Shown here one piece after another: positions 37,552 through 58,285 of a stretch of 64,000 nt of DNA. The stretch's first letter is position 1; every line of letters begins with the position of its first letter. The position numbers were made by a program, and so were the translations under genes. The notes under the pieces were generated by a model. That model did no database searches, had not been told where the DNA came from, and saw only the letters and a program-made list of their open reading frames with translations. The stretch covers positions 1,056,001 through 1,120,000 of the forward strand of contig CAWGMQ010000005.1 in NCBI GenBank assembly GCA_963823665.1, in the 5' to 3' direction. Origin of the DNA: an uncultured Planctomycetota bacterium. Its GTDB lineage: Bacteria; Planctomycetota; Planctomycetia; Isosphaerales; Isosphaeraceae.

Positions 37552-38898
37552 ATGGCGCATCGTATTCATCCTGGAATATTTGTTTGTGTGACGATAGCTA
37601 CGGGCCTGTTGATCGGCGCGGCAAGCGGTGACGAGCCGCAGAAGAGTGGGGGGGTGTTGACCGGCCAGGATGCTCTGGGCGACTGGACCACCGATGCACC
37701 GGGCGTGCGCCGGCGGATCACGATCGACGACCTTGCCAAGCCGTTCGCGACTCCGTCTGCGAACAATTTCCCCAGGCCCGCGCGCCGGCCTTCGGAGGCC
37801 ATGCCGCGGGCGCCGAAGGGATTCCAGGTTTCCGAGTTTGCGGCCGGTTTGCAGAACCCTCGCAAGATCGTGACTGCGCCAAACGGCGACATCTTTATTG
37901 CCGAAAGCATGCCGAGTGGCCGTACGCCCGGCCGAATCAAGGTCCTTCGCGATACCGACGGCGACGGTAAGGCCGACGTGACCGAGAACTTTGCGACCGG
38001 TTTGCGCCGGCCGTTCGGGATCGCGTTCTACCCCGCCGGCCCGAATCCTACCTACGTGTACGTAGGCAACACCGACTCGGTCGTCCGCTTTCCCTATCGG
38101 AACGGCGACACCAAAGCTTCAGGAGAAGCGCAGATGCTGGTCGACAACATCCCCACCGGGCGAGAGCAAGTAGGCGGTGGGGGACACTGGACTCGCGATG
38201 TTGAATTCGCCAAGGACGGCAAGACGCTCTTTGTCTCGGTCGGTTCGCGGTCGAACGTGAGTGACGACCAGAGCGAAGCGCGGCGCGCCGATATTCTGGC
38301 GTTCGACCCCGACGGGAAGAACGAGCGCATCTACGCATCGGGTATCCGCAACGCCGTCGGCCTGGCCATTCATCCCGAGACCGGCCAGCTCTGGGCTTCG
38401 GTCAACGAGCGTGACGCGCTCGGCGACCACCTGGTGCCCGATTATGTGACCCACGTAGAACAAGGCGGTTTCTACGGCTGGCCCTGGTACTACATCGGTG
38501 CCCATCAAGACCCTCGGCACGGAGGCAAGCACCCGGAGCTCAAGGACAAGGTGATCGTCCCCGACGTGCTGGTTCAATCGCACTCGGCATCATTGTGCAT
38601 GACGTTTTATACCGGCAGTCAGTTTCCTGAATCGTATCGCCTCGACGCATTCGCTGCCGAGCACGGCTCGTGGAACCGCGCGCGCCGTACCGGTTACAAG
38701 GTGATTCGGATCCCGATGAAGGACGGTAAAGCGACCGGCGAATACGAGGACTTCCTGGTCGGTTTCGTCACCCCGGAAGGTAATGTCTGGGGCCGCCCGG
38801 TTGGCGTGACCGTGGCCAAGGACGGCGCGCTCCTGGTCACCGACGACGGTTCGGGCATCGTCTGGCGGGTCGCATACATCGGCTCGGACACGAAGTGA
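37552..38898 (+). CDS. L-sorbosone dehydrogenase / PQQ-dependent sugar dehydrogenase family
   Basis: HWTR, SVGS.SN, G.RN.VG, VNERD.LGD, FYGWP, HGSWNR, GRPVGV. Confidence 0.9.
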   Translation: MAHRIHPGIFVCVTIATGLLIGAASGDEPQKSGGVLTGQDALGDWTTDAPGVRRRITIDDLAKPFATPSANNFPRPARRPSEAMPRAPKGFQVSEFAAGLQNPRKIVTAPNGDIFIAESMPSGRTPGRIKVLRDTDGDGKADVTENFATGLRRPFGIAFYPAGPNPTYVYVGNTDSVVRFPYRNGDTKASGEAQMLVDNIPTGREQVGGGGHWTRDVEFAKDGKTLFVSVGSRSNVSDDQSEARRADILAFDPDGKNERIYASGIRNAVGLAIHPETGQLWASVNERDALGDHLVPDYVTHVEQGGFYGWPWYYIGAHQDPRHGGKHPELKDKVIVPDVLVQSHSASLCMTFYTGSQFPESYRLDAFAAEHGSWNRARRTGYKVIRIPMKDGKATGEYEDFLVGFVTPEGNVWGRPVGVTVAKDGALLVTDDGSGIVWRVAYIGSDTK

Positions 38899-40079
38899 TG
38901 AGCGGTGCCAGTCAAATGCGCATTCAGCAGCCGCGATCGGCATTTCGACTTGCTCTGGGTGTTGGGTGCATTCTGGTCTTGGGACTGGAGCTGCCACGAT
39001 CGCTGCGCGCCCAAGCACGGGTGCAGCCGACGGTCGATGAGCGGTGGATCGGCCAACGGGTGGTGCAGAAGGTCGCCAAGCTGACGCTCCGCATGAATGG
39101 CGAGCCCGTCGAAGGCAACAACGGCACGCGTCACTTTTATCGGGTGGAGCAGATCGATGGTGCGTCGCTTCTGCTCAAGCCAGAAGGCCAGGGAAAAGGG
39201 GGCTGGGCGAGTGCAGTCGAGGTCATTCGCGTCGCTGAGGCACTCGAGTTCTTCCTCCAGCAAATCCAACGTAATCCCAAAGACCCGTTGTCATTCGCCA
39301 TGATCGGGCTGCTCAGGGGCGACCGGAACGAGTACGACCTGGCCATCCACAGCTACGACGAAGCAATCCGGCTCGAGCCGAAAAATGCCGCGATCTACGC
39401 AGCCCGGGCCCGATCGTGGTATGCAAAGAAAGAGTATGACCGCGCCATCGCGGACTACGACGCCGCAATCATTCGCGATCCGAAGAACTGCGCCGCGTAC
39501 ATCGGGCGCGGCCTCACTGCTGTTGCGAGGAACCAGTACACGCAGGCCATCGCCGACTTCAGCGAGGCGATCTGGCTCGACCCGCTCTCGACATCAGCTT
39601 ACTTCAATCGCGGTCGCGCGTGGCGATCCAGGAAGGAGTATGCGAAGGCGATCATCGATTACAATCTGGCAGCGCGGCTCGACCCCCAACGGGCCGACGT
39701 TTTTCGTGAGCGCGCTAATGCCTGGGAAGCGCTGAACAGCTATCGCAATGCTATCGCCGATTACGGGGAGGCGATTCGGATCGATCCGCGCGACCCGCGA
39801 GCATACAGCGATCAAGCCAGGCTCCTCGTGACATGCCCGGATCGGATGCTGCGCGATGCCAAGCTTGCCGTGGATTTGGCAAGGAAAGCATGCGAGCTGA
39901 CCCGCTGGCAGGAAGCCAGCGCGCTTGACGCGCTGGCTCGTGCCTCGGCCGCGATCGGAGATTTCAAATCGGCTGTAGAGTGGCAAACCAAGTCAAACGT
40001 ACTCGCTCGCAGCCCCGTCGAGCGGGAAGAGGGAGCCGCTCGGCTGAAGCAATACCTGGAAAAGCTGCCGGAACCGTGA
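38895..40079 (+). CDS. Exported TPR-repeat protein
   Basis: Repeated AI.DY..AI.LDP motifs; A..ACELT.W tail. Confidence 0.88.
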   Translation: MMSGASQMRIQQPRSAFRLALGVGCILVLGLELPRSLRAQARVQPTVDERWIGQRVVQKVAKLTLRMNGEPVEGNNGTRHFYRVEQIDGASLLLKPEGQGKGGWASAVEVIRVAEALEFFLQQIQRNPKDPLSFAMIGLLRGDRNEYDLAIHSYDEAIRLEPKNAAIYAARARSWYAKKEYDRAIADYDAAIIRDPKNCAAYIGRGLTAVARNQYTQAIADFSEAIWLDPLSTSAYFNRGRAWRSRKEYAKAIIDYNLAARLDPQRADVFRERANAWEALNSYRNAIADYGEAIRIDPRDPRAYSDQARLLVTCPDRMLRDAKLAVDLARKACELTRWQEASALDALARASAAIGDFKSAVEWQTKSNVLARSPVEREEGAARLKQYLEKLPEP

Positions 40080-40214: not shown

Positions 40215-41831
40215 TCAGAGGCCGCTCAAGTTCAGGCCGACGAGCCTGATCCCCTTCTTCAGTCCCAGTTCTTTCACGACATTCTCACTCGCCGGCACCG
40301 TCAAGCTTCGGCGCGGGGCGATGCTGATGCCGACCAGGAACTTGGGCACTTCCTCCGCCGCACTTGCGACGCCCAGTGCCGCTAGGCCGTTCAGAACAAG
40401 GGGCGATGCGTTTTCGATTCGAATCTCATAGTGCATCTTCCCCTTGTCCTTGACCCCCTTGCTCAACTGTGCCCGGACCAGTCGATTGAGGATTCCCTCC
40501 GACATCTCCTCGCAGAGATCGTAGGTGTCGAGCTTGCCTTTGTCCCGTTTGACGGGAACGTTGAACTTACCGAACGCGACCCAGTGTTGCGCCGCGCCGT
40601 CGCTCGAGAAGACCTGGACCAGCGCAGTGCTCGCGCTCAGCTTGACGCGGCAAGCCACAGCGGGAGCATTCGGCCGAGGCGGTATCCCGTTGTCAGCGAG
40701 GAGCCCCAAGACCATCTTGTTCTGAAGCGTCCGCGAGAGCTCGGCCGCCGCCACTTCACCCGCGCTGTCGCTTCCCGAGACTTCGAAAAGAACCCTGGCA
40801 TTCTCATCGACGACCTTTGTATCCAGCCGAGCCACGAAATCCTGGGCGAGCGTCATCTCGTAGCGGTTAACCCAGTTTCCCGCGAGCTGGGAAATGGAGT
40901 TCCAATCAAGTCCGGCGCACACATGCCACATGACAAGCTGCGAAACTCGCGAGGGAGCCATGCGCTCAGCCAGTCGCCTCAATGCCGTCTGGACTCGCGG
41001 GTCTTGATTGGTTTCGGCAATGTCGGCGAGTGCGAGCGGCTCGCCCTTCTGGGGCAGCCTCAAGACGATCGCGGGGTCGGGAGGCGTCAGACTCACCAAT
41101 CGCGTCGGCAAGTGACGGGTCTGACCCGGCTCCAGAACGGCCGAAGGGACCCCTGTTGCAGGCACGGAGCGCATACCGCCGCCCATTCCACCCATCATGC
41201 CGCCGCCCATACCGCCGCCCATCATCCCCATGCCGCCACCCATTCCACCCATGCCTCTCATACCCATCATTCCGATCATGAGGCTGCGCATGTCCCAACT
41301 ATCAGGATCACCGCAAAAATACATGATAATTCGCGCAAGCGTCATCATGCCGAACATTGCCGGCATTGTCCCGGAACTGCGGCCCATGCCTCCCATGCCT
41401 CGCATCCCGCCGCCCATGCCTCCCATGCCGCCGCCCATGCCTCCCATGCCACCGCCCATGCCGCCACCCATGCCTCCCATGCCACCGCCCATGCCTCCCA
41501 TTCCTCCGAACTGGCCGGTCGCGCCTTGCGCAATCAAGCCCGGCGGCAGCACGACTCGCAGTTGGCGGCGGGTGCGATTCGTGAGAGAGACGGTCATCCG
41601 GCCATCGTCTCGGCCCTCGGCCTTGACGGTGATCTCCCCGTCGCGCGCGGCGGCAAGCAGGTTGACTTCCCGAATCTCCTGCTCGTCCTGGTTCTTTGAT
41701 CGTTCCGGCGCAACTTGCGACGGACGGACTTTTGTCTCGGACTTGTCCTGGGGGTCTCCCGCACAAGCCGGGGAAAAACCAAGCGAACCTGTGAGGCCAA
41801 TTACCAGGAACGCCCGAATGCAGTAATTCAT
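40215..41831 (-). CDS. Secreted Gly/Met-linker protein, paralog P1 (most divergent)
   Basis: Signal peptide; (GGM)n-LARIIMYFCGDPDSWDMRSLM-(GGM)n; ends LNLSGL. Confidence 0.85.
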   Translation of the reverse strand: MNYCIRAFLVIGLTGSLGFSPACAGDPQDKSETKVRPSQVAPERSKNQDEQEIREVNLLAAARDGEITVKAEGRDDGRMTVSLTNRTRRQLRVVLPPGLIAQGATGQFGGMGGMGGGMGGMGGGMGGGMGGMGGGMGGMGGGMRGMGGMGRSSGTMPAMFGMMTLARIIMYFCGDPDSWDMRSLMIGMMGMRGMGGMGGGMGMMGGGMGGGMMGGMGGGMRSVPATGVPSAVLEPGQTRHLPTRLVSLTPPDPAIVLRLPQKGEPLALADIAETNQDPRVQTALRRLAERMAPSRVSQLVMWHVCAGLDWNSISQLAGNWVNRYEMTLAQDFVARLDTKVVDENARVLFEVSGSDSAGEVAAAELSRTLQNKMVLGLLADNGIPPRPNAPAVACRVKLSASTALVQVFSSDGAAQHWVAFGKFNVPVKRDKGKLDTYDLCEEMSEGILNRLVRAQLSKGVKDKGKMHYEIRIENASPLVLNGLAALGVASAAEEVPKFLVGISIAPRRSLTVPASENVVKELGLKKGIRLVGLNLSGL

Positions 41832-42120
41832 CGAACGAGACCTTTCGTATGAAAGAGATAAATGAATCGTGCGGCGCAGACGAGCGCGACACACGAAGTA
41901 CAAATTCACTCGTTTATTTAGCCGGGATCGGCTGCCGCGTTGCGGCGTGAGATGCGAATCCGGACGGGATCACCGCGTCGATATGCGGGGCGATCCACTA
42001 CCGACGCGCCACCAAGCCGTCTCACAACGAGCAGGCCGAATGCCGCGGAGGGATCCCCGCGTGACACGGTGCGGCTCGGAAGCGCTCAGGTCGCACAGCG
42101 GATGATCGAAGAAGGGAGGT

Positions 42121-42471
42121 CTAACAGCGAAGCGGTGAAAGGGTAGGAACGCGCCGCGTGCTGAAGGCAATCGACCAGGGCAAACAGAGCGAGCGCGGGA
42201 CGACTACAGGTCCCAAGTCGGTCTCTTCGCGGATGTTGTAGTCGGTCTCGGCCAGCACGATTTTTGGCCGTGCCTTCCACGGAGCAAAGCGACTCATCGT
42301 CGGCGCATCTGGAATGCTCATCCCAACCGGCCGAACGGATGTGCCGTCGACCGTCAGTGTAGCGAAAGCCGAGGCTTTTGCCGGTGACTCGGTCGACAGC
42401 GCGAACAGCGCCGACGGCGCGCTTAGCAAAGGAAAGAACAGGACCAAGAGAGCCGGACGAATGACGAACAT
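42121..42471 (-). CDS. Small signal-peptide protein sA (116 aa) ending SPLRC
   Basis: Homologous to sB and sC: APWKARPKIVL.ET, DLGP. Confidence 0.75.
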   Translation of the reverse strand: MFVIRPALLVLFFPLLSAPSALFALSTESPAKASAFATLTVDGTSVRPVGMSIPDAPTMSRFAPWKARPKIVLAETDYNIREETDLGPVVVPRSLCLPWSIAFSTRRVPTLSPLRC

Positions 42472-42789
42472 CCCGCTTCCCCACGAGGAGCCAGTCGAGA
42501 TCAAGCGCGTATCAGCCTGATCACAAGGAAAGCTCATGAGATAGGATATCTCGTCCAAAGCGCTCGATCAAGGCAGAGCTTCAGATATCTTATTATGCGA
42601 TGTTGTGCCCGCGGCCGGCCATGAAATAGCGATGTCATCCTTGGTTCTTGACAGCAGCACCGACCAGAATCCGGAACCGAACGAAGTTCCCCGGCGAGCC
42701 ATCCTCGCCGGGGCTGGTCAAGATCATTGAGACGTGTCGGTCGTTTTCAGCGTCTGGGCACGCTGCGAATCCGGTGAACGCCCGCAACA

Positions 42790-44448
42790 TCAAAGTCCGC
42801 TCAGGTCCAGTGCCGTCAGCTTGATCCCCTTCTTCAGGCCGAGCGTCTTCACGACTTGCTCATTCGCCGGAATCGTCAGGCTCCTCCGCGGCGACACGCA
42901 GATCCCCGTCAGAACCTTCGGCGTCTCGCTCGCCGGACTGTCCGTTCCCAGCAGGGCAAGACCGTTGAGTATCATCGGAGAGAAATTCTCAATCCGGATC
43001 TGATACACAAGCTTGCCCTTCTCGCGGGTCGTCGCACCCTTGATCACCTGCGCACGCACCAGCCGATTCAACACCCCCTCCGCGAAGCCGTCCGCAAATC
43101 GATTCACATCGAACTTGTCCCGGCCATCATCGAGCGGAAGGGTGAACTTGCCGAACGGAACCCAGTTCGAAGCCCCCGCGTCACTCCCCAGCACCTGAAC
43201 CGACGCTTCTCCTGCCTTCAGCTTCACTCGGCATGCAATTGCAGGCGCCTCCGGACGCTCGGCAAGCTTCTCCGAGACCGATGCGGCCAACCCCAAGATA
43301 GACTTGCGATCGAGCAACTTGCTCAACTCGTCCGCAAGCGGATGAGTCGTTTCATCCGACGCCACGACCTCGATCAACAGCCGCCCGCTTTCGGCTTCGT
43401 CCAGAGTATCCAGGCGGTTCACAAACTCCTTGGCCATCGCCAGCTCATGACGATTCGACCAGCCTTGCGAGAGCTGACCAATCGTGCTCCAGTCCAAACC
43501 CGCCGCCAGGTTCCACATCACCAGTTGCGAGAGCGACGTCGGCGCCTTTTCAGCCGCCAGCCGCCGCAACGCTTTCTGCACCCGTGCGTCATCGTTGACC
43601 TGCGAAATATCACCCACAATCCGCATCGGCTCACCCTTCTCGGGAAGACGCAAGCCATGCTCCGGATCGGGCGCCGTGATACTCACCAACCGCGTGGGCA
43701 AGTGCCTCGTCTGCCGCGGGTTCAGCTCTGCCGACGGAAGCATCGTCGGAGCCACCGAACGCATCCCACCACCCATACCGCCCATGCCGCCGCCCATCAT
43801 GCCACCGCCCATGCCGCCCATGCCGCCGCCCATGCCTCGCATGCCCATCATTCCAATCATGAGGCTGCGCATGTCCCAACTGTCGGGGTCGCCACAGAAA
43901 TACATGATGATTCGAGCCAGCATCATCATCCCCATCGTTGCCGGCATCGTACCCGACGTGCGACCCATGCCGCCCATACCTCCCATGCCGCCGCCCATGC
44001 CTCCGCCCATGCCTCCGCCCATGCCTCCCATCCCGCCGCCCATGCCGCCCATGCCGCCGCCCATGCCGCCGCCCATGCCGCCGCCCATGCCTCCCATCCC
44101 GCCGCCCATGCCTCCCATCCCGCCGAATTGACCAGTGGCGCCCTGCGCGATGATGCCCGGCGGCAGAACGACTCGCAGTCGATGCGGGGTATTATTGGAC
44201 AGCGAGAGCGTCATTCGACCGTCGCCTCTGCCCTCGGCGTTTATCGTCACCTGGCCATCACGTGCAGCGTCCAGCAAGTTGACCTCGACAACCGGTTGGT
44301 CGGCTTTTTGCTCGGTACTTCTGGCCTTCACCCGCGCAGGGCCGGCCTTGCTGCCAGCCTTGTCTTTGTCATCACCGCGTGCAGGGTGAGCAAGCGGGAG
44401 ACACGCCATGAAGGCGGCCGAGACGAATGCGCGAACGGTGTGATTCAT
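42790..44448 (-). CDS. Secreted Gly/Met-linker protein, paralog P2
   Basis: Same architecture as P1, P3 and P4. Confidence 0.88.
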   Translation of the reverse strand: MNHTVRAFVSAAFMACLPLAHPARGDDKDKAGSKAGPARVKARSTEQKADQPVVEVNLLDAARDGQVTINAEGRGDGRMTLSLSNNTPHRLRVVLPPGIIAQGATGQFGGMGGMGGGMGGMGGGMGGGMGGGMGGMGGGMGGMGGGMGGGMGGGMGGMGGMGRTSGTMPATMGMMMLARIIMYFCGDPDSWDMRSLMIGMMGMRGMGGGMGGMGGGMMGGGMGGMGGGMRSVAPTMLPSAELNPRQTRHLPTRLVSITAPDPEHGLRLPEKGEPMRIVGDISQVNDDARVQKALRRLAAEKAPTSLSQLVMWNLAAGLDWSTIGQLSQGWSNRHELAMAKEFVNRLDTLDEAESGRLLIEVVASDETTHPLADELSKLLDRKSILGLAASVSEKLAERPEAPAIACRVKLKAGEASVQVLGSDAGASNWVPFGKFTLPLDDGRDKFDVNRFADGFAEGVLNRLVRAQVIKGATTREKGKLVYQIRIENFSPMILNGLALLGTDSPASETPKVLTGICVSPRRSLTIPANEQVVKTLGLKKGIKLTALDLSGL

Positions 44449-44752
44449 CGAATCGGACCTTTCTTATGAAAGAGATCAATCGGAAATGCGGCGCAAGAAA
44501 TCGCCACATGTCTGTAATCAAACTCATTTTCTTATTGATTGATTCGGGGCCGGCACTGCTGTGAGGGCGGCAAAGATCATGGGGCCGGACGTGGGTAACG
44601 GCTTGCACAGCGACGCGCAAGCGAAGCGCCGGATAGCGTGCTCGCGGGCAGCCGGTCAGTTGTCGCGCAGAGGCCGCGCCTTATCCCGTGACCGGCAGGA
44701 AAAGACCCGGGCACACGAGTTAGGGAGAATGGAACCGGGAACCAAGGGCCCT

Positions 44753-45103
44753 TCAACAACGAAGCGGCGATTGGGTGGGAGCGCGGGGCGAGGTCCGAGC
44801 AATCGACCAAGGTGCAGTGAGCGTGCGTGGAACAAGCGCGGGGCCGAAATCAATCTCGTCGGGGAACTGGGGGCCCGTCTCGTTCAAAACGATCTTTGGC
44901 CGGGCTTTCCACGGCGCCAAGCGAACCAGGGTCGATGAGCGAGAGAGGCCGAATCCGACCGTGGAGGAGATGGACGAACCGCACCCGGCTGGAGCGAAAA
45001 CGGCGTGTCTGGCCGGAGACTGGGACGATCCGTCGGCGAACGCCGATGGCAACGTCAACAGGCCAACCAAGACAGCCGCGATCGCCGAGCGAATGGCGAA
45101 CAT
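44753..45103 (-). CDS. Small signal-peptide protein sB (116 aa) ending SPLRC
   Basis: Same length and motifs as sA. Confidence 0.75.
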   Translation of the reverse strand: MFAIRSAIAAVLVGLLTLPSAFADGSSQSPARHAVFAPAGCGSSISSTVGFGLSRSSTLVRLAPWKARPKIVLNETGPQFPDEIDFGPALVPRTLTAPWSIARTSPRAPTQSPLRC

Positions 45104-45423
45104 CCCGCTTCCTCGTATGAGGCGAATCGACAAATCCAACGTCCCACCGACGTAAATGCACGTACTACTCAAGAACCAGCCTAACTTACGCGGCTCGCTC
45201 GAACAAGACGCCATCAGATATCTTATCATGCGATTTCGCCCGTGCGACCGGCCATGAAATACCAGATGCGGACGAGTTTTGAAGGATCGCTTGTGGCCGA
45301 AGGCGGATTGCCTCGAACCAACCCGGGCGAGCCCTCCTCGCCCAGACTGGTCGAAATGCTGGCTTCGGAACGACTCCTTCCCTCGTCTCGCAATGTCCCG
45401 ACAGTACCCTGAGCAACCGACGA

Positions 45424-47097
45424 TCACAGTCCGCTCAGGTCCAGTGCCGTCAGCTTGATCCCCTTCTTCAGGCCGAGCGTCTTCACGACTTGCTCATTCG
45501 CCGGAATCGTCAGGCTCCTCCGCGGCGACACGCAGATCCCCGTCAGAACCTTCGGCGTCTCGCTCGCCGGACTGTCCGTTCCCAGCAGGGCAAGACCGTT
45601 GAGTATCATCGGAGAGAAATTCTCAATCCGGATCTGATACACAAGCTTGCCCTTCTCGCGGGTCGTCGCACCCTTGATCACCTGCGCACGCACCAGCCGA
45701 TTCAACACCCCCTCCGCGAAGCCGTCCGCAAATCGATTCACATCGAACTTGTCCCGGCCATCATCGAGCGGAAGGGTGAACTTGCCGAACGGAACCCAGT
45801 TCGAAGCCCCCGCGTCACTCCCCAGCACCTGAACCGACGCTTCTCCTGCCTTCAGCTTCACTCGGCATGCAATTGCAGGCGCCTCCGGACGCTCGGCAAG
45901 CTTCTCCGAGACCGATGCGGCCAACCCCAAGATAGACTTGCGATCGAGCAACTTGCTCAACTCGTCCGCAAGCGGATGAGTCGTTTCATCCGACGCCACG
46001 ACCTCGATCAACAGCCGCCCGCTTTCGGCTTCGTCCAGAGTATCCAGACGGTTCACAAACTCCTTGGCCATCGCCAGCTCATGACGATTCGACCAGCCTT
46101 GCGAGAGCTGACCAATCGTGCTCCAGTCCAAACCCGCCGCCAGGTTCCACATCACCAGTTGCGAGAGCGACGTCGGCGCCTTTTCAGCCGCCAGCCGCCG
46201 CAACGCTTTCTGCACCCGTGCGTCATCGTTGACCTGCGAAATATCACCCACAATCCGCATCGGCTCACCCTTCTCGGGAAGACGCAAGCCATGCTCTGGG
46301 TCAGGCGCCGTCACGCTCACCAACCGCGTCGGTAACTGCCTCGTCTGCTGCGGGTTGAGGTCCGCCGAAGGAAGCATGGTCGGAGCCACCGAACGCATCC
46401 CACCACCCATACCGCCCATACCACCGCCCATCATCCCCCCGCCCATGCCGCCGCCCATGCCGCCGCCCATCATCCCCATGCCGCCCATCATCCCGATCAT
46501 GAGGCTGCGCATGTCCCAACTATCGGGGTCACCGCAGAAATACATGATGATTCGAGCCAACATCATCATGCCCATCGTCGCCGGCATTGTGCCGGAAGTG
46601 CGGCCCATGCCGCCCATGCCGCCCATCCCACCGCCCATCCCACCGCCCATGCCGCCGCCCATCATCCCCATGCCGCCGCCCATGCCGCCGCCCATGCCGC
46701 CCATGCCGCCGCCCATGCCTCCCATGCCGCCGCCCATGCCTCCCATGCCGCCGCCCATGCCTCCCATGCCGCCGAATTGGCCGGTCGCGCCTTGGGCGAT
46801 GATGCCGGGGGGCAGCACGACGCGCAGTCGGCGCCGGGTGTTATTGGTCACTGCGAGCGTCATCCGGCCATCGCCTCGCCCTTCAGCGGTGATCGTCACT
46901 TGGCCGTCGCGTGCGGCGTCCAGAAGGTTGACTTCCTGAATCGGTTGCTCAGGCTTTTGCTGAGAACCCTTGAGTTTGGCCCGAACCCGGCCGGCATTCG
47001 TGGCCGACTTCTCCTTGTCATCACCGCGTGCAACGTGAGCAAGCGGCAGACACATCAGCAAACTGGCCGCGACGAAAACGCGAATCAAATGACTCAT
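45424..47097 (-). CDS. Secreted Gly/Met-linker protein, paralog P3
   Basis: Same architecture; 3' half almost identical to P2. Confidence 0.88.
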   Translation of the reverse strand: MSHLIRVFVAASLLMCLPLAHVARGDDKEKSATNAGRVRAKLKGSQQKPEQPIQEVNLLDAARDGQVTITAEGRGDGRMTLAVTNNTRRRLRVVLPPGIIAQGATGQFGGMGGMGGGMGGMGGGMGGMGGGMGGMGGGMGGGMGMMGGGMGGGMGGGMGGMGGMGRTSGTMPATMGMMMLARIIMYFCGDPDSWDMRSLMIGMMGGMGMMGGGMGGGMGGGMMGGGMGGMGGGMRSVAPTMLPSADLNPQQTRQLPTRLVSVTAPDPEHGLRLPEKGEPMRIVGDISQVNDDARVQKALRRLAAEKAPTSLSQLVMWNLAAGLDWSTIGQLSQGWSNRHELAMAKEFVNRLDTLDEAESGRLLIEVVASDETTHPLADELSKLLDRKSILGLAASVSEKLAERPEAPAIACRVKLKAGEASVQVLGSDAGASNWVPFGKFTLPLDDGRDKFDVNRFADGFAEGVLNRLVRAQVIKGATTREKGKLVYQIRIENFSPMILNGLALLGTDSPASETPKVLTGICVSPRRSLTIPANEQVVKTLGLKKGIKLTALDLSGL

Positions 47098-47361
47098 CGG
47101 TTGATGCCTTTCATGAATAAGGCGATGAATCGATCGTGGAAAGTAAGCAAACGCACGTGCAAATCACTCTGCAGCCACACAAACACGTCGCGAGCCCTGA
47201 TCACGTGGCAGAGCTCGCCATCGAAGCACAACAGCCTCGCGCGGCCGGCTCGAGTGAAGTGAAAACGAGCTAGCAGACGCGAGTCGACGCAATCGCACCG
47301 GCCATTTGTCACTGGCGTGGCGCGAGCGCCGCACTGAACGCCCCACGTACCGGCGCGCTGT

Positions 47362-47721
47362 TCAACAGCGGCGTCGGCAGGTTGTCGAGAGGAAAGGACG
47401 CACGAAGTGATTTGATGGAGGCGAGTTGTTCCCCTTCGGAACGTCGACGGGGCCCAGGTCGACTTCTTCAAACTCGCGTTGTGACTCTTCCAGCACAGCC
47501 TTCAGCCGGCTCTTGCGCCGTCCAACCCGCAACAAGGATGAACTGCCAGTGATTGAGGCGAGCGCCGGTAACGAATTCCATGATTCAAGGTGGCATTGCA
47601 CCACGACGGCACCGGTCCCGGGAGAGTTCCCGACCGAGGAGACCGAAGCAGCGACGGGCGAATTGAGGAAGCCCATCGTCAGGACCAGGATGCACCAGGG
47701 AACGGCGGACATCGGAAACAC
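47362..47721 (-). CDS. Small signal-peptide protein sC ending RRRC
   Basis: KSRLKAVLEE and EVDLGP align with sA/sB; same position in the array. Confidence 0.65.
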   Translation of the reverse strand: MFPMSAVPWCILVLTMGFLNSPVAASVSSVGNSPGTGAVVVQCHLESWNSLPALASITGSSSLLRVGRRKSRLKAVLEESQREFEEVDLGPVDVPKGNNSPPSNHFVRPFLSTTCRRRC

Positions 47722-47895
47722 CTTGATGGTCTAATCACGCTTATCACGCAAATCGCCGACCCGCGCGAGACGCACTCGCGCAGGTCGGTCGAAATCGCGT
47801 CAACTTATCCATTCCGAGAGATAGCCGGCCAATCATTCTCCGACTTGAGACATTGAACGCTTGTGTTGGCCTCTTTTTCAATGGCTTCGGAATCA

Positions 47896-49587
47896 TCACA
47901 GCCCGCTCAGGTCGAGCGCGGTCAGCTTGATCCCCTTCTTCAGGCCTAACTCTTTGACGACGTCCTCGTTAGCCGGAATGGTCAAGCTTCTCCGTGGTGA
48001 GACGCAGATGCCTGTCAGCACCTTCGGCCGCTCTTCTTCCGGGCTACCCGTACCCAAAAGCGCCAGCCCGTTGAGAATCATCGGAGAGTAGTTTTCGATC
48101 TTGATCTGGTAGACAAGCTTACCTTTCTCGCGGGTCGTCGCACCCTTGATAACTTGCGCCCGGACCAGGCGATTCAGCACGCCCTCGGCCAAACTGTCCG
48201 CAAACCGAGTCGCGTCGAACTTCCCTCCAGCCTGCTGAAGCGGAAGACTGAATTTACCGAACGGAACCCAGTTCGCAGCCGCCGCGTCACTCCCCAGCAC
48301 CTGAACCGACGCCTCACCATCCTTCAGCTTCACCCGGCAAGCAATCGCCGGGGCATCCGGATTGGCTGCCAGAGCCGCTTTTGATTCCGCAACCAACCCC
48401 AGAATGTACTTGCCTTCCATCGCCTTGCCCAGGTCTGTCGCCGCCCCCTGGCTCGCTTCATCCGATGCCACGATCTCCAGGAAGAGCCGACCACTCTCAC
48501 CAACAGGCAGCGTATCCAGCCGATTCACAAATTCCCTCGCCATCGCCAGCTCATGACGATTCGACCAGCTTTGCGAAAGCTCGGCAATCGTGCTCCAGTC
48601 CAGACCCGCCGCCAGATTCCACATCACCAGTTGCGATAGCGAAGTCGGCGCCTTCTCAGCCGCCAGCCGCCGCAACGCCTTCTGCACCCGCGCGTCGTCG
48701 TTCACCTGCGAAATATCACCCACGATCCGCATCGGCTCACCCTTCTCGGGAAGACGCAAACCGTGCTCCGCATCAGGCGCCGTGACGCTCACCAGCCGCG
48801 TCGGTAACTGCCTCGTCTGCTGCGGGTTGAGCAATGCCGAAGGAAGCAGTGTCGTAGGCACAGATCGCATGCCGCCACCACCCATTCCTCCGCCCATTCC
48901 TCCGCCCATGCCGCCGCCCATCATGCCACCGCCCATGCCACCGCCCATGCCGCCCATCATCCCGATCATCAAGCTGCGCATGTCCCAGCTATCCGGGTCG
49001 CCGCAGAAGTACATGATGATTCGCGCCAGCATCATCATTCCCATGGTCGCCGGCATTGTCCCAGACGTCCGGCCCATGCCTCCCATGCCGCCCATACCAC
49101 CGCCCATACCACCGCCCATACCACCGCCCATGCCACCACCCATACCACCACCCATACCGCCACCCATACCACCCATGCCGCCGCCCATGCCGCCACCACC
49201 CATACCGCCGCCCATGCCACCCATGCCGCCGAACTGGCCGGTGGCACCTTGGGCAATAATCCCTGGCGGAAGCACCACGCGCAATTGCCGGCGCGTATTG
49301 TTCGTCACGGATAGAGTCATACGTCCATCACCCCGGCCCTCAGCTTCAACCGTGACCAGACCGTCGCGCATCGCTGTCAGAAGGTTGATTTCGGGAGCGT
49401 GCGGGTCTTCCTTGACGGTCGCTTTATTTGTCTTGGCGCGCCCCTTGGTCGCCTTGCTTTGCGACGGAATCGCTTTCGCCCGAGGAAGATCGGTCTCGCC
49501 CTTATCCTGGGCAAGGACCGACAATGGAAGCAGGGCGAGCAAGCTTCCGGCGCAAAACGAGGTGAACCACCTGAGCGACTGAGACAT
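47896..49587 (-). CDS. Secreted Gly/Met-linker protein, paralog P4
   Basis: Same architecture; ATG at 49587 after gaaagg. Confidence 0.88.
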   Translation of the reverse strand: MSQSLRWFTSFCAGSLLALLPLSVLAQDKGETDLPRAKAIPSQSKATKGRAKTNKATVKEDPHAPEINLLTAMRDGLVTVEAEGRGDGRMTLSVTNNTRRQLRVVLPPGIIAQGATGQFGGMGGMGGGMGGGGMGGGMGGMGGGMGGGMGGGMGGGMGGGMGGGMGGMGGMGRTSGTMPATMGMMMLARIIMYFCGDPDSWDMRSLMIGMMGGMGGGMGGGMMGGGMGGGMGGGMGGGGMRSVPTTLLPSALLNPQQTRQLPTRLVSVTAPDAEHGLRLPEKGEPMRIVGDISQVNDDARVQKALRRLAAEKAPTSLSQLVMWNLAAGLDWSTIAELSQSWSNRHELAMAREFVNRLDTLPVGESGRLFLEIVASDEASQGAATDLGKAMEGKYILGLVAESKAALAANPDAPAIACRVKLKDGEASVQVLGSDAAAANWVPFGKFSLPLQQAGGKFDATRFADSLAEGVLNRLVRAQVIKGATTREKGKLVYQIKIENYSPMILNGLALLGTGSPEEERPKVLTGICVSPRRSLTIPANEDVVKELGLKKGIKLTALDLSGL

Positions 49588-49921
49588 CGAGAACGACCTT
49601 TCTAGACGATTCCGTAAGTGAGAAGCGATTGGCCATCGAGGCACGTCGGCATCGGCAACGCGACTGTCAATTGCCGTCGCAGTCACGTGTTCTTGTCCTA
49701 ATTGACGCTGGAGACGAGCAATCTATTCGGCAGTGACGGCGACCAACTCGCTCGATCGCCCAGTTTCCCTGCTCCCCGCCGGCTCATTCCCCCGCGTATC
49801 GGCTCCGAACCGTCAAGAATGCCTCACAACATGGTGTAATACCAGAACTTCGACCAGAGTGTTATTTGTTGTTGCGCACACGATCGGCAGGAACTGCCCC
49901 CCAAGTGCAGGAGCGCCGCGG

Positions 49922-51603
49922 ATGGAACGTGCGATTCCGCTCTGCATGAGCTTGATCGTGATCTTCGCCGTGGAATCGCGTGCCGCTGACGAACCGGCGC
50001 GGTCCTTGCGTGTCTTGGCCGATTTGAACCACACGGGCAATCTCATCAAGCCGCGCAACTCTCGGCGCTAGCCCCGAACGAATTCGGCATCGCTGTGCCG
50101 CTCCCGGCGCGAATCCTCGATCGAACCCGATTGCCCGAGAACTTGGCGCCAGGTGACCATAATCTTGAGAAGCTAGGGCGGCTCCGTGTCGAGATAACGC
50201 GGGGAGGGGGTGACCTCGTCGTTTCCATCGAAAGTGACAGTAGCCGTCAACTTCGCCTCTTTCAGAAGGCCAACGGCGAATGGCGGCGGTTGGCGACGGG
50301 TAAGGGTCAGTCATGGACGCTGGCGCCGGAACTTGATGGAGCCGTTGAAATGGGCATCGGTGTTCTGATGCCCGAGGCCCAACGAGGCGAGCCTCAGCCA
50401 ACCTGGCCTCGAACATTCGACGTCCTGGTCTCATCGCAGGCCCACCGCGGTGAGACCGTGCGCATTCCGTTCCGCGTGGCACCATGCATCATTCCCTCGG
50501 CGCTCGAGCCGGTCGAGGAACTGATGATCGTCTCCCTGCCCGTCACCGCTGATGCGGTGCTAGGCATACGAGCGCTCACGGCAGCAATGGGCGTCAAGCT
50601 CGTTGCTAATGAGGCCCACGACCTTTGCGATCAATGGATGCAGGACACGATCCAGCCCGGAATCTTCGCGTTCCCGACCGCCGTGCGCCGCGAACAGGCG
50701 CGCGCAAGCCTGATAGGGCTGCGCTCGAGGACCTCTGCGGCCCGGCTCGATCACCAGGTCGCCAGGAGGCTCCGCCGTCACGGCGTGCTGACGATAACGG
50801 CCGGAGTCCCGCGTGAGAACACTCGGTGGATCGACGGGTACGGCAACCTCGAGTCCACGCCTCCTCATACCAACCGCCACGGAACGAAGTATCCCTATGG
50901 CCGGGTTATCGTCGGCAAGCAACGCGAGCTCACAATGCATCCGGACGTGATGAAATTCCTCGAGGCACAAGGGTTGCAATGGCCGCCGATCGTCGCAGAT
51001 ACGTCTTGGTTGGCAATCGGACACGTTGACGAGGTCGTGAATTTCGTCCCGGCGAACACCGAAGCGGGCTTCAAGGTCCTTCTTCCCAGCCCGAAGGCAG
51101 CTCGAGACATGCTTGCGAGGCTTCTGGCGAGCGGCTTGGAACTGGCCCCGGTCTTCGCCGGGACGGAAAACGAGATGACCCTCGGCACCCCGCGGATGAC
51201 GATTGCCGAATCGTCAGAGAACCTGGCGATCGACCAAGCCGTCACCCGCCTCCTCAAGCAATTAAAGACCGAGCTGAACCTGGGCGATTCTGACTTCGTC
51301 ATGCTCCCAGCCCTGTTTCAGCGGGGTATCGCCGTGATCCCGAACCCGGTCAACAGCATGCTCGTCAATGGCGTTCTGCTCGTTGCGGAGCCGCGCGGCC
51401 CCCGGCAGAACGCGAAAGACGCCTTCGAGAACGCCATCCGCGCGGCCCTCACCGGATGCGATGTGCGACTGGTCTTCATCGACTCATGGAACGCATACCA
51501 CACGTCGGCCGGCGAGATCCACTGCGGCACCAACACCTTCCGCCGCCTGCGCGACCCGGCGTGGTGGAAGTACGTCGGGAATGCGGACCCGCACGCAAAG
51601 TGA
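49922..51603 (+). CDS. Protein-arginine deiminase (PADI-type) with signal peptide, frameshift near 50045
   Basis: WMQD, GNLE.TPP, YP.GR, WL.IGHVDE, GEIHCGTN, WW; leader MERAIPLCMSLIVIFAVESRAA lies in the adjacent frame. Confidence 0.85.
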
Positions 51604-54658: not shown

Positions 54659-57600
54659 ATGGAACTGCTGAGCGATATCTGGGACAAGACGACCGACGCA
54701 TTCACGGCCCTGACGGAAGGCGTCTCCGAGGGCCTGGTTCGTCTGTTCGGCAGCTCCAACGAGCGCAGAATCCGTCACATGCGGGCGACGGTGGACCGAA
54801 TCAACGAGCTCGAGCCCGCAATGAAGACGCTCAGTGCCGACGAGCTGCGGGCCAAAACGGCCGAGCTGCGGCAGCGCAGGACCGCCGGCGAGTCGCTCGA
54901 GGAGCTCTTGCCCGAGGCCTTCGCCGCGGCGCGCGAGTCGGGCCGTCGCTATCTCAACATGCGCCACTTCGACGTCCAGTTGATGGGCGGCATGGTCTTG
55001 CACGGCGGCAACATCGCCGAGATGGTCACGGGCGAAGGCAAGACCCTGGTCGCCACCCTGGCGGCTTACCTGAACGCGCTGGACGGCCGCGGCGTGCACG
55101 TCATCACGGTCAACGACTACCTCGCCCGCCGCGACGCTGAATGGATGAGCCCGTTGTTCCATGGTCTCGGGATGACCGTCGGCGCGATCCAGTCTGAGAT
55201 GGATTCCAGCGAGCGCCAGGCGATCTACGGCTGCGACATCACCTACGGAACCAACAACGAGTTCGGCTTCGACTACCTCCGCGACAACATGAAGCCGACC
55301 AAGGAGTATCAATCTCAAGGCGAGCTCAATTACGCCATCATCGACGAGGTCGACAGCATCCTGATCGACGAGGCCCGCACGCCCCTCATCATCTCCGGGC
55401 CTGCGTTCGACGACGTCGCCAAGTACGCCGAAGCCGACCGCATCGCCCGCCAGCTCAAGCGCGACCTCCACTTCGAGGTCAAGGAAAAGGAGCGGACTTG
55501 CCATCTGAACGATGACGGCGTGCGCGAGGCCGAGAAGATCGCCGGGCTCGAAAGCTTCTACACCCCCGGCAACATGGAGTGGCCGCACCTGATCGACAAT
55601 GCCTTGAAGGCCCATCACCTCTACCGGCGCGACCGCGATTACGTCGTCCAGCCCGACGGCGAGGTGGTCATCGTCGACGAGTTCACCGGCCGTTTGATGA
55701 TCGGCCGCCAGTGGTCCGACGGCCTCCATCAGGCCGTCGAAGCCAAGGAAAAAGTCAAGGTCAAGGAAGAGAATCAGACGCTCGCCACGATCACCCTCCA
55801 GAACTTCTTCAAGCTCTACAAGAAGCTCGCCGGCATGACCGGCACGGCCATGACCGAGGCGACCGAGTTTTACAAGGTCTACGAGCTCGACGTCATCGCC
55901 ATCCCCACCAACCAGACCCTCGTGCGGGTCAACTACCCCGACGTGATCTACCGCTACGAGCGCGAGAAGACCGAAGCCATCCTGGACGAGATCCGCGAGG
56001 TGAACGCGACCGGCCGGCCGATCTTGGTCGGCACAACCTCGATCGAAAAGTCGGAAGAGCTCGCCGGGATGCTCAAACGCTACGGCATTCCCCACCAGGT
56101 CTTGAACGCCAAGTATCACGAGCGCGAGGCCGAGATCGTGGCCCAGGCCGGCCGCCGCGGCGCCGTGACCATCGCCACCAACATGGCCGGCCGCGGCACC
56201 GACATCATCCTGGGCGGCAACCCCGAATTCATGGCCTGGGCCGACCTCAAGCGCCAGGCCGATGAAGACGGCCGCCCGCTCTATCAAACCCGCCTCGATG
56301 TCTCGAAGGAAGTGTGGGAAGAAGCGGTCCGCCGCTACGAGCCCGAGATGAAGACCGAAGGCCGCGAAGTCGCCGCCTTGGGCGGCCTGCACATCATCGG
56401 CACCGAGCGCCACGAAAGCCGCCGCATCGATAACCAGCTTCGCGGCCGCGCCGGCCGCCAGGGTGATCCCGGCTCCTCGCGCTTCTTCCTGTCGCTCGAA
56501 GACGACCTGATGCGCAAGTTCGCCGGCGAATGGGTCTCCGCCGTCCTCACCCGCTTGGGAATGCAGGAAGGCGAAGCCATCGAGAGCAAGATGGTCAGCC
56601 GCCGCATCGAAGGCGCCCAGAAGAAAGTCGAGGAGCGCAACTTCGACATCCGCAAGAACCTCCTCGAATACGACGAGGTCATGGACCAGCAGCGCCGGCG
56701 CATCTACTCCTTCCGCCAGAGCCTGCTCGAGGGCGCACCTCCCAAGGAAATGGTCCTCGAAATGATCGACAAGCAGATCGAGGATGCCGCCGGCCGCTTT
56801 CTCGCCGACGACTACGGTGCCGCCACGTTCGCCGAAGTCGCCGGCCAGGCCCTGGGCGTCGAGCTCACCGCGCGCGACGTCAAGGGCGCAAGCTTCGAAG
56901 ACGCCGTCGAGATCGCCAGGTCCAAGGCCGAGCGACAGCTCTCCGACTCCATCCGCCAGGCCATCGAGGAAAACCTCCCCCCCGACGCCGATCGCTCCGA
57001 ATGGACCTGGCAGGCCCTCGTCAACTGGGTCAACAATCGCTTCGGGCTGAAGCTCAACGAAAAAGAGCTCCGGAAAATCGCCATCACCGATGAAGAAGAG
57101 TTCCGCTCCGGCCACGATGACCTCGAGGAATTCCTCACCGAGCGGGCCACCGAGGCAATCGCCGGCATCGACTTGTCCAAAGCGAACGAGTTCCTCCAGC
57201 CCGACTGGGGGCGCCGCACACTCGCCGGCTGGGTCCACCACAAATTCACCCTGGTCGTCGACCCGGCAACCTGGGCTGATCTCGATCGCGGGGAAATCAT
57301 CCGCCGCGTCCGGGCCGCCGCACGCCAGCTCTACGCCCTCAAGGAGGCCGAGCTCCCCTTGCGCATCGCCCTCCGCCGATTCCTCGGCGACCGCTCCCAG
57401 ACTGCGTCCCCGCGCTACGACCGCGACGGCCTCGCCGCCTGGCTGAACGAGCGCTACCAGGCCCACATCGATCCCGAAGAGCTGCGCCCCCTGCTCCGCT
57501 CCCAGATCGAGGCCAGGCTCACCGAGCTCGCACACGAACATTATCAAGGTGAAAACGCCTCGCAGGAGCTCGAAGCAAAACTATCAGCCGCCAGGATCAG

Positions 57601-58285
57601 CCGCTCGCACCCCGACTCCGATTCCACTCCGCCCACACCGGCGGCGCTCGCCGAGATCGCCGACTGGGCCAACCAGTCCCTGGGCCTCTCGACCACCGCC
57701 GAACATCTCGCATCGATGACTTCCGGCGAGATCCGGCACACGCTCTTGAACGCCATCGATGCCCGTTACCGCCCCGAAATGCGCGAGATGGAAAAATCCG
57801 TGCTCCTCGATATCCTCGACTCGAGCTGGATGGAACACCTCCGCACCATGGACCACCTCCGCAGCTCGATCGGCCTCCAGGGCTACGCACAGATCGACCC
57901 CAAGGTCGAATACAAACGTGAGGGCATGCGCATCTTCGGCGACATGTGGGGCGGCATCGGCGATCGCGTCACCGACCTCATCTTCCGCGTCGAACAGTTC
58001 GACCCCCAGGTCCTGGACGACCTCGGCTCGCGCTGGAAGCTCGACCGCGCCCAGACCATCCACCACCAGGCCGAATCACAGCTCTCCGCCCCGGCTGCTT
58101 CCGGAGGCACCCGCCGCCAGCAAGACGCCGCAATCGCCGCCAGCGAGCGCTCCACCGAAAAGAAACGCGAGCCCCTCCGCAACACCAACAAGAAAGTCGG
58201 TCGCAACGACCTATGTCCCTGCGGCTCCGGTAAAAAGTTCAAAGCCTGCTGCATGCGCAAACAATCGATGGCCGACCCGTTTTGA
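54659..58285 (+). CDS. secA: Preprotein translocase subunit SecA
   Basis: [74 protein letters not shown]. Confidence 0.98.

Follow-up and report, generated by a model that had tools for sequence, protein, structure and literature searches.

Small open reading frames, proposed ribosome-stalling leaders, alternate with genes for predicted exported Gly/Met-linker proteins in an Isosphaeraceae bacterium

We analysed a stretch of 64,000 nucleotides (nt) from an uncultured planctomycete of the family Isosphaeraceae (assembly GCA_963823665.1, contig CAWGMQ010000005.1, positions 1,056,001 to 1,120,000; hereafter the window). It carries an array of seven open reading frames (ORFs), all on the minus strand and in the order P4-sC-P3-sB-P2-sA-P1, at the coordinates given in the original prediction. 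Four large genes (P1 to P4) alternate with three small ones (sA, sB and sC); the small ORFs and their homologues are called leaders here, after the role proposed for them below. The features, from P4 to P1, are:

47896..49587, minus strand: P4, 563 amino acids (aa), predicted exported Gly/Met-linker protein; first copy of the array, no leader ORF ahead
47362..47712, minus strand: sC, 116 aa from ATG, leader-type ORF with the deviant end RRRC and no promoter match of its own
47098..47361, minus strand: spacer from sC to P3, 264 nt, no sigma-70-like promoter match
45424..47097, minus strand: P3, 557 aa; final 975 nt 98.3% identical to P2
45325..45343, minus strand: GC-rich hairpin 3′ of P3, no U tract
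45178..45206, minus strand: predicted sB promoter, weak sigma-70-like, at a family-conserved position; missed by a stricter scan
44753..45103, minus strand: sB, 116 aa from ATG, PLRC-stop leader ORF, C-rich round the stop
44449..44752, minus strand: spacer from sB to P2, 304 nt, GAAAGG ribosome-binding site, no promoter match
42790..44448, minus strand: P2, 552 aa
42689..42713, minus strand: GC-rich hairpin 3′ of P2
42543..42571, minus strand: predicted sA promoter, weak sigma-70-like; missed by a stricter scan
42121..42471, minus strand: sA, 116 aa from ATG, PLRC-stop leader ORF
41832..42120, minus strand: spacer from sA to P1, 289 nt
40215..41831, minus strand: P1, 538 aa
40118..40139, minus strand: GC-rich hairpin 3′ of P1, array end

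The repeating unit of this tandem array comprises a predicted promoter, a short ORF with a PLRC-stop end and the gene of a predicted exported P protein. Each unit consists of a small ORF followed by P (gaps of 264, 304 and 289 nt), and P4 has no small ORF ahead; sC has an alternative GTG start at 47721. One could suspect an assembly or polishing artefact behind the array or its near-identical copies, given that P2 and P3 differ at only 2 positions in their last 870 nt, that the assembly measures 16 Mb and that one paralogue carries a frameshift. However, locus L007, in another assembly, has the identical P-s-P-s-P-s-P order, and short contigs from soil metagenomes agree with parts of the array at every position (0 differences), the junction at the P3 3′ end among them (none covers the whole array, and one run is possibly the source sample). 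An artefact is therefore unlikely. In addition, leaders and spacers are distinct between copies, multi-copy arrays occur elsewhere (L010, L011 and L021) and near-identical P neighbours were found in seven genomes (including L010, L011, L129, L130 and L132). We thus regard the artefact explanation as hardly credible and the array as real.

The small ORFs share the motifs K.R.K.VL.E and D(L/F)GP and a terminal RC, as had been described; sA and sB end in PLRC and sC in RRRC. Identity of sA to the other two is 31-47%. None of the three gave a Pfam family at E up to 10 or an NCBIfam match, and P had no match in either collection, in agreement with the earlier statement that both families are unrecognised; they appear planctomycete-specific and are predicted to be exported. 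Among 28 non-redundant leaders, conservation is highest in the last four residues (P 0.75, L 0.93, R 0.96 and C 1.0) and in two inner motifs, DLGP at -32 to -29 and W-R-x-R-x-K-x-V-L at -52 to -44, while other positions are mostly conserved at less than 0.4. The basic-motif Arg lies 48-50 residues from the C-terminus in 37 of 39 leaders (search range 41-59). A hydrophobic 11-mer (Kyte-Doolittle 2.2-3.4) was found 105-111 residues before the end in 26 of the 28, the distance from signal to end being about 90 residues; signal peptides, called here from hydrophobicity alone, are supported to this extent. Ratios of non-synonymous to synonymous substitution rates (dN/dS) between leader orthologues were 0.62, 0.39, 0.60 and 0.42, against 0.14, 0.10 and 0.32 for P, which suggests that the leaders are translated yet loosely constrained.

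Searching the regions ahead of the leaders for motifs revealed a TTGAC box. In 26 of 33 leaders, a pattern of the TTGAC-17-TANNNT type lies 98-106 nt ahead of the start (shuffled sequences: 1.6), whereas in the leader-to-P spacers no enrichment was observed (2 of 29 against 2.0 in shuffles). P carries a GAAAGG ribosome-binding site; behind a leader, this test gives it no separate promoter. All 28 leaders have more C than G in their last 90 nt, compared to 91 of 205 ordinary genes, and 23 of 28 do so over the 40 nt that follow the stop, compared to 96 of 205; P gene ends show no such skew. A rho gene is present in the same genome (G000). Since sC has no promoter match and no strong hairpin lies between P4 and sC, P4, sC and P3 may share one transcript. 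Leaderless first-in-array copies (including window positions 49600-50100) had a sigma-70-like promoter match in only 2 of 17 cases and may use another sigma factor. A fifth P copy, elsewhere in this genome (L024:6779-9082 (-)), has a PLRC leader to itself; upstream of that leader and of its two orthologues, the sigma-70-like pattern had no match.

The same ending occurs before other genes. Thirty pattern loci of the same genome yielded three further signal-bearing PLRC-stop ORFs, two of them ahead of AcrB-family genes: L125:2234-2563 (+) and L124:11422-11781 (-), unrelated ORFs that both end HPLRC-stop and lie 230 and 284 nt from their respective genes. The L124 cluster holds two AcrB-like genes and three more long ORFs with similar N-termini. 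For one RND pump, a PLRC-stop ORF was present in 26 of the 30 best family loci, with a near-consensus promoter ahead of it in 24 of 26 and in the spacer in none. PLRC is the sole part that these AcrB-class leaders have in common with the array leaders (<8 bits vs 82-128); they mostly end HPLRC and carry a separate basic patch at -64 to -59. Leaders of the s family ending PLLC (L123:12115-12462 (-) and L122:4312-4662 (+)) stand ahead of a protein with TPR and STN domains. The latter has a Gly/Met tail and a weak match to the Amuc_1098 family, and at L122 its gene is duplicated, with copies around the leader. With a strict nucleotide pattern, 121 genomes yielded 120 matches, compared to 18 for reversed controls, a count made by hand and partly circular as the pattern was derived from these genes. 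An in-frame ORF of at least 95 aa was present at 20 of 29 such loci that were read; 6 precede P, 8 precede AcrB-like starts (5 unscanned) and 6 precede others. Acidic signal-bearing PLRC-stop ORFs of about 150 aa ahead of other genes (L126:6445-6915 (-) in the same genome, L149, L164, L167 and L172) are putative further leader classes. As the same ending precedes unrelated efflux pumps, the small genes are likely leader switches rather than partners of P.

We therefore propose a cis-acting leader. Gene order, promoter position, the promoter-free spacer, fixed motif spacing, the C-rich stop, the rho gene and the recurrence of PLRC ahead of unrelated envelope genes are the basis of this reading. 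That the small ORF acts in cis, be it through its peptide or through RNA only, is probable; that it does so as a ribosome-stalling leader gating transcription into P is the version we favour, with moderate confidence. A ribosome would stall at or near the PLRC stop and cover a Rho loading site in the C-rich tract; with Rho blocked, RNA polymerase would read through the spacer of 260-630 nt into P. Because the ribosome exit tunnel holds 30-40 residues, the basic motif, about 49 residues back, would sit just outside it. Once the export machinery pulled on the signal sequence, the stall would break and Rho would end transcription; P would thus be produced whenever export or envelope assembly falls behind. 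We are less confident of the Rho route, and likewise of the export trigger, than of the peptide stall, and an export or envelope lag as the signal sensed is a guess. If the proposal is true, a new arrest motif joins the small set of ribosome-stalling leaders, one leader device is reused across unrelated envelope genes within one bacterial family, and the alternating array consists of duplicated regulatory units, with no new machine.

The original prediction had instead proposed a two-gene module, which would make the small protein a stable exported partner or chaperone of P. Linkage itself was recovered in other genomes: among 23 leader loci read, P lies downstream in 21, one is cut short and one precedes the TPR-STN protein, and the small gene is nearly always ahead of a predicted exported protein. 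This linkage, purifying selection on the small ORF, its hydrophobic N-terminus and its class-specific motifs (W-R-x-R-x-K-x-VL and DLGP) would all suit a partner protein. Obligate pairing, on the other hand, was not found. The C-terminal 325 residues of P matched in 115 of 120 other family genomes (a count that includes a distant paralogue), while a profile built from 24 of the small ORFs, applied to only 37 candidates in each genome, found 23 of 121 genomes at E < 1e-7 and 29 when E was relaxed to 0.01. Half of the 30 P copies in a tree set (15) carry a leader and the other 15 have none, and the first copy is leaderless in this array, L007, L010 and L011. P, being far wider in distribution than s and leaderless in half of the tree set, does not need the small gene, and the idea of a two-protein module kept intact was not borne out. 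The near-identical P neighbours of L010, one with and one without a leader, the s-family ORFs before the TPR-STN protein, the PLRC-stop ORFs before unrelated pumps and the mostly unconserved mature part of the small protein also argue against a partner, a role we consider quite unlikely. Leader counts are lower bounds, since a divergent, frameshifted PLRC-stop ORF before P (L152:1050-1515 (+)), in a genus without a leader by profile, was missed.

Alternatively, only the act of translation may matter, and the stop nucleotides and C-rich tract could form a factor-binding or Rho-loading RNA element. The codons at the end of the leaders are indeed biased. TGT encodes the terminal Cys in 24 of 28 class-1 leaders; for Cys codons inside the leaders the figure is 18 of 57, and for ordinary genes about 20%. 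CGC encodes the terminal Arg in 30 of 38 leaders, and the conserved stop nucleotides are mostly CGC TGT TGA; the strict-pattern count above points the same way. This sequence may resemble a boxA element. Elements of that kind can favour Rho termination (PMC12360218). Yet class-1 Pro and Leu codons vary freely, and all 26 AcrB-class leaders retain PLRC while their Cys codons (TGC 18, TGT 8) and stops (TAG 15, TAA 6, TGA 5) vary. Moreover, an RNA element would need neither fixed peptide spacing nor a signal sequence. We judge the RNA-only version unlikely and retain peptide-dependent stalling.

Three known systems resemble the stalling leader proposed here. CruR of Bordetella pertussis (Bp2923, DUF2946/PF11162) has CxxC and RAPP motifs 45 residues apart, with conserved spacing, and its stall shields a Rho site (PMC9426467). 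The leaders share with it the first position in the unit, a predicted export signal, a long spacer, proposed Rho control, envelope genes downstream and two motifs at a fixed distance (about 45 residues from basic motif to PLRC). In contrast to CruR, array leaders have no CxxC, RAPP or PF11162 match, their conserved motif is the very C-terminus, and the targets are P, the TPR-STN protein and RND pumps instead of a TonB-dependent transporter. The leaders show three of the four features used to screen for Sec/YidC-type monitoring arrest peptides, three classes of which stall at a stop codon (PMC10987492). Common to both are an N-terminal signal, a spacer of more than 30 residues and conserved residues right before the stop; motif and phylum differ, the leaders are not upstream of secA, secDF or yidC, and stalling here is predicted. 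TnaC and SpeFL offer a parallel for a stop-codon stall, proposed here, that shields an adjacent Rho site at a long distance from the gene (PMC12360218). The leaders have the corresponding C-rich, G-poor tract and a rho gene, by composition only; those peptides are short cytoplasmic metabolite sensors, whereas the array leaders are 116-aa signal-bearing ORFs. An ORF from another planctomycete family (L211:1189-1653 (-)), signal-bearing and directly upstream of an outer-membrane efflux protein, carries pairs of Cys and a CPLC motif, with an RGAGPP stretch that lies eight residues ahead of PLRC, and is a possible bridge between RAPP-like and PLRC leaders. At the level of search listings and passages of the cited papers, the literature held no description of PLRC leaders or of P and s proteins.

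Several observations weigh against the stalling leader. The promoter match is missing in 7 of 33 leaders, its pattern was set after the motif had been seen, and a stricter scan found no minus-strand promoter within the array. The C skew of the last 90 nt is partly due to Pro, Ser and Arg codons. sC deviates, with its RRRC end and no promoter, and C is not in excess downstream of its stop (13 C, 17 G). A loose PLRC-stop DNA pattern is not enriched in this genome (33 against 47 in the control), nor visibly outside the Isosphaeraceae. The TGT bias points to an RNA-level constraint that stalling or a peptide effect alone does not explain. RAPP-like and CxxC motifs are absent from the 24-sequence leader alignment, PLRC is not among known arrest motifs, and the related genomes are not independent.

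Turning to P itself, P3, P2 and P1 are 81%, 79% and 60% identical to P4. Each has the two Gly/Met tracts noted earlier and a C-terminus LDLSGL or LNLSGL (the L.LSGL end). In the model of P1, an N-domain (about 54-111 and 222-337) is interrupted by the tracts (109-151 and 187-221) with a helix at 158-172 between them, and is followed by a middle domain (343-452) and a beta-sandwich (452-536). The middle domain is predicted to be an alpha/beta fold of about 100 residues, of the group of the TolB N-domain, the FlgT middle domain, PelC, CsgG, LptE, PqiC and TraT. This fold is that of ring-forming envelope proteins, and P may accordingly take part in a surface polymer. P is predicted to be periplasmic or at the surface and is most likely a non-covalent envelope scaffold or binder. 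The wider P-related family was found in 112 of 201 genomes searched across Planctomycetia, and the models give this unnamed protein family a first structural handle.

Each P contains 40-45 Met, with many MxxM and MxxxM spacings. Copper or silver handling, with Met-rich tracts binding soft metal ions and a leader sensing metal like CruR, would be consistent with this, with the RND pumps behind PLRC leaders and with the Cys motifs and RGAGPP stretch of L211. The Cys between the tracts is, however, kept in only 39 of 64 aligned sequences, homologues have Gly-rich loops without Met at the same site, array leaders contain no CxxC and no metal genes were recognised adjoining the array. The metal-binding idea of the original prediction finds little support here, and we hold it to be very unlikely.

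The P N-domain, by way of a paralogue model, appears to resemble the thioester domain (TED) of the Gram-positive adhesins Cpa, CpTIE and BaTIE (PMC4450167). The differences are a planctomycete host, no LPXTG anchor, an inserted Gly-rich loop and a Ser in place of Cys in the array proteins. The thioester Cys position is Ser in 66 and Cys in 1 of 86 aligned P sequences; because of this Ser, no thioester is expected in the array proteins. Cys is kept in a paralogue (39/39) and in a class-wide family (14/14), preceded by V, I or G where the TED strand motif, [YFL]-C-hydrophobic-polar, has Y, F or L. In the TQxx-hydrophobic-W helix motif, Gln (88/91) and Trp (86/91) are conserved in P, with Thr replaced by Ser or Ala. 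A loop Gln is kept in the Cys-bearing families (10/10 parsed and 39/39) and nearly absent from P. The alignments stop at Cpa 560 and CpTIE 254, short of the strand with the thioester Gln, which is Gln 267 in CpTIE (PMC4450167). The ARPP-1 profile (PF20208), from a group with conserved Cys and Gln (PMC9503650), matched 2 of 14 class-wide homologues weakly (best E 0.079). The TED match itself is middling (Z 5.2-6.4) and was obtained with the model of the paralogue, whereas the best 50 matches listed for the P1 model included no thioester domain; both points count against a thioester-domain-like N-domain in P. In a wider reading, PLRC-stop would be a new class of termination-stalling export monitor, which one planctomycete family attached, with several unrelated N-terminal parts, to efflux pumps, a secretin-like protein and P arrays; and P would come from a class-wide planctomycete thioester-domain family, of the covalent-adhesin fold so far described from Gram-positive bacteria, with the partner Gln from the Gly-rich loop. 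Both Cys and Gln would then have disappeared from P, which acquired a Met-rich helix held by a (GGM)n tether on each side. We consider this combined reading less likely than not.

The single-copy Cys-keeping paralogue in the same genome (L025:7131-8723 (+)) is thioester-domain-like in the family model; its C-terminus runs out of the family frame (530 vs about 458 aa), by frameshift or assembly error. Single-domain exported homologues of about 260-350 aa in other Planctomycetia families (L267-L282) have Q-x-x-x-W, a Cys that never varies and a Gln placed centrally in a loop rich in Gly. They are candidate thioester proteins; the 16 loci showed no common gene neighbourhood. Cys-bearing family members are candidates for internal thioester bonds outside Gram-positive adhesins and bear on planctomycete attachment and envelope building.

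As to the origin of the array, P2 and P3 resemble each other closely over their final 975 nt within a genome (99.4% in L007, close to the value here), against 82-83% across the two genomes; their leaders have remained distinct and orthologous. Copy number thus likely rose by tandem duplication of a promoter-leader-P unit, followed by gene conversion of the coding part, with polishing artefacts a remote alternative. Named homologues are hypothetical proteins of Isosphaeraceae or Isosphaerales. Flanking ORFs lie at 50095-51603 (+), 37552-40079 (+) and 54659-58285 (+) of the window. A protein-arginine deiminase family gene stands on one side of the array and glucose/sorbosone dehydrogenase and TPR genes on the other, and a SecA-like ORF, recognised by eye only, lies 5 kb away. 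None of these is kept beside P in relatives whose neighbourhoods were listed.

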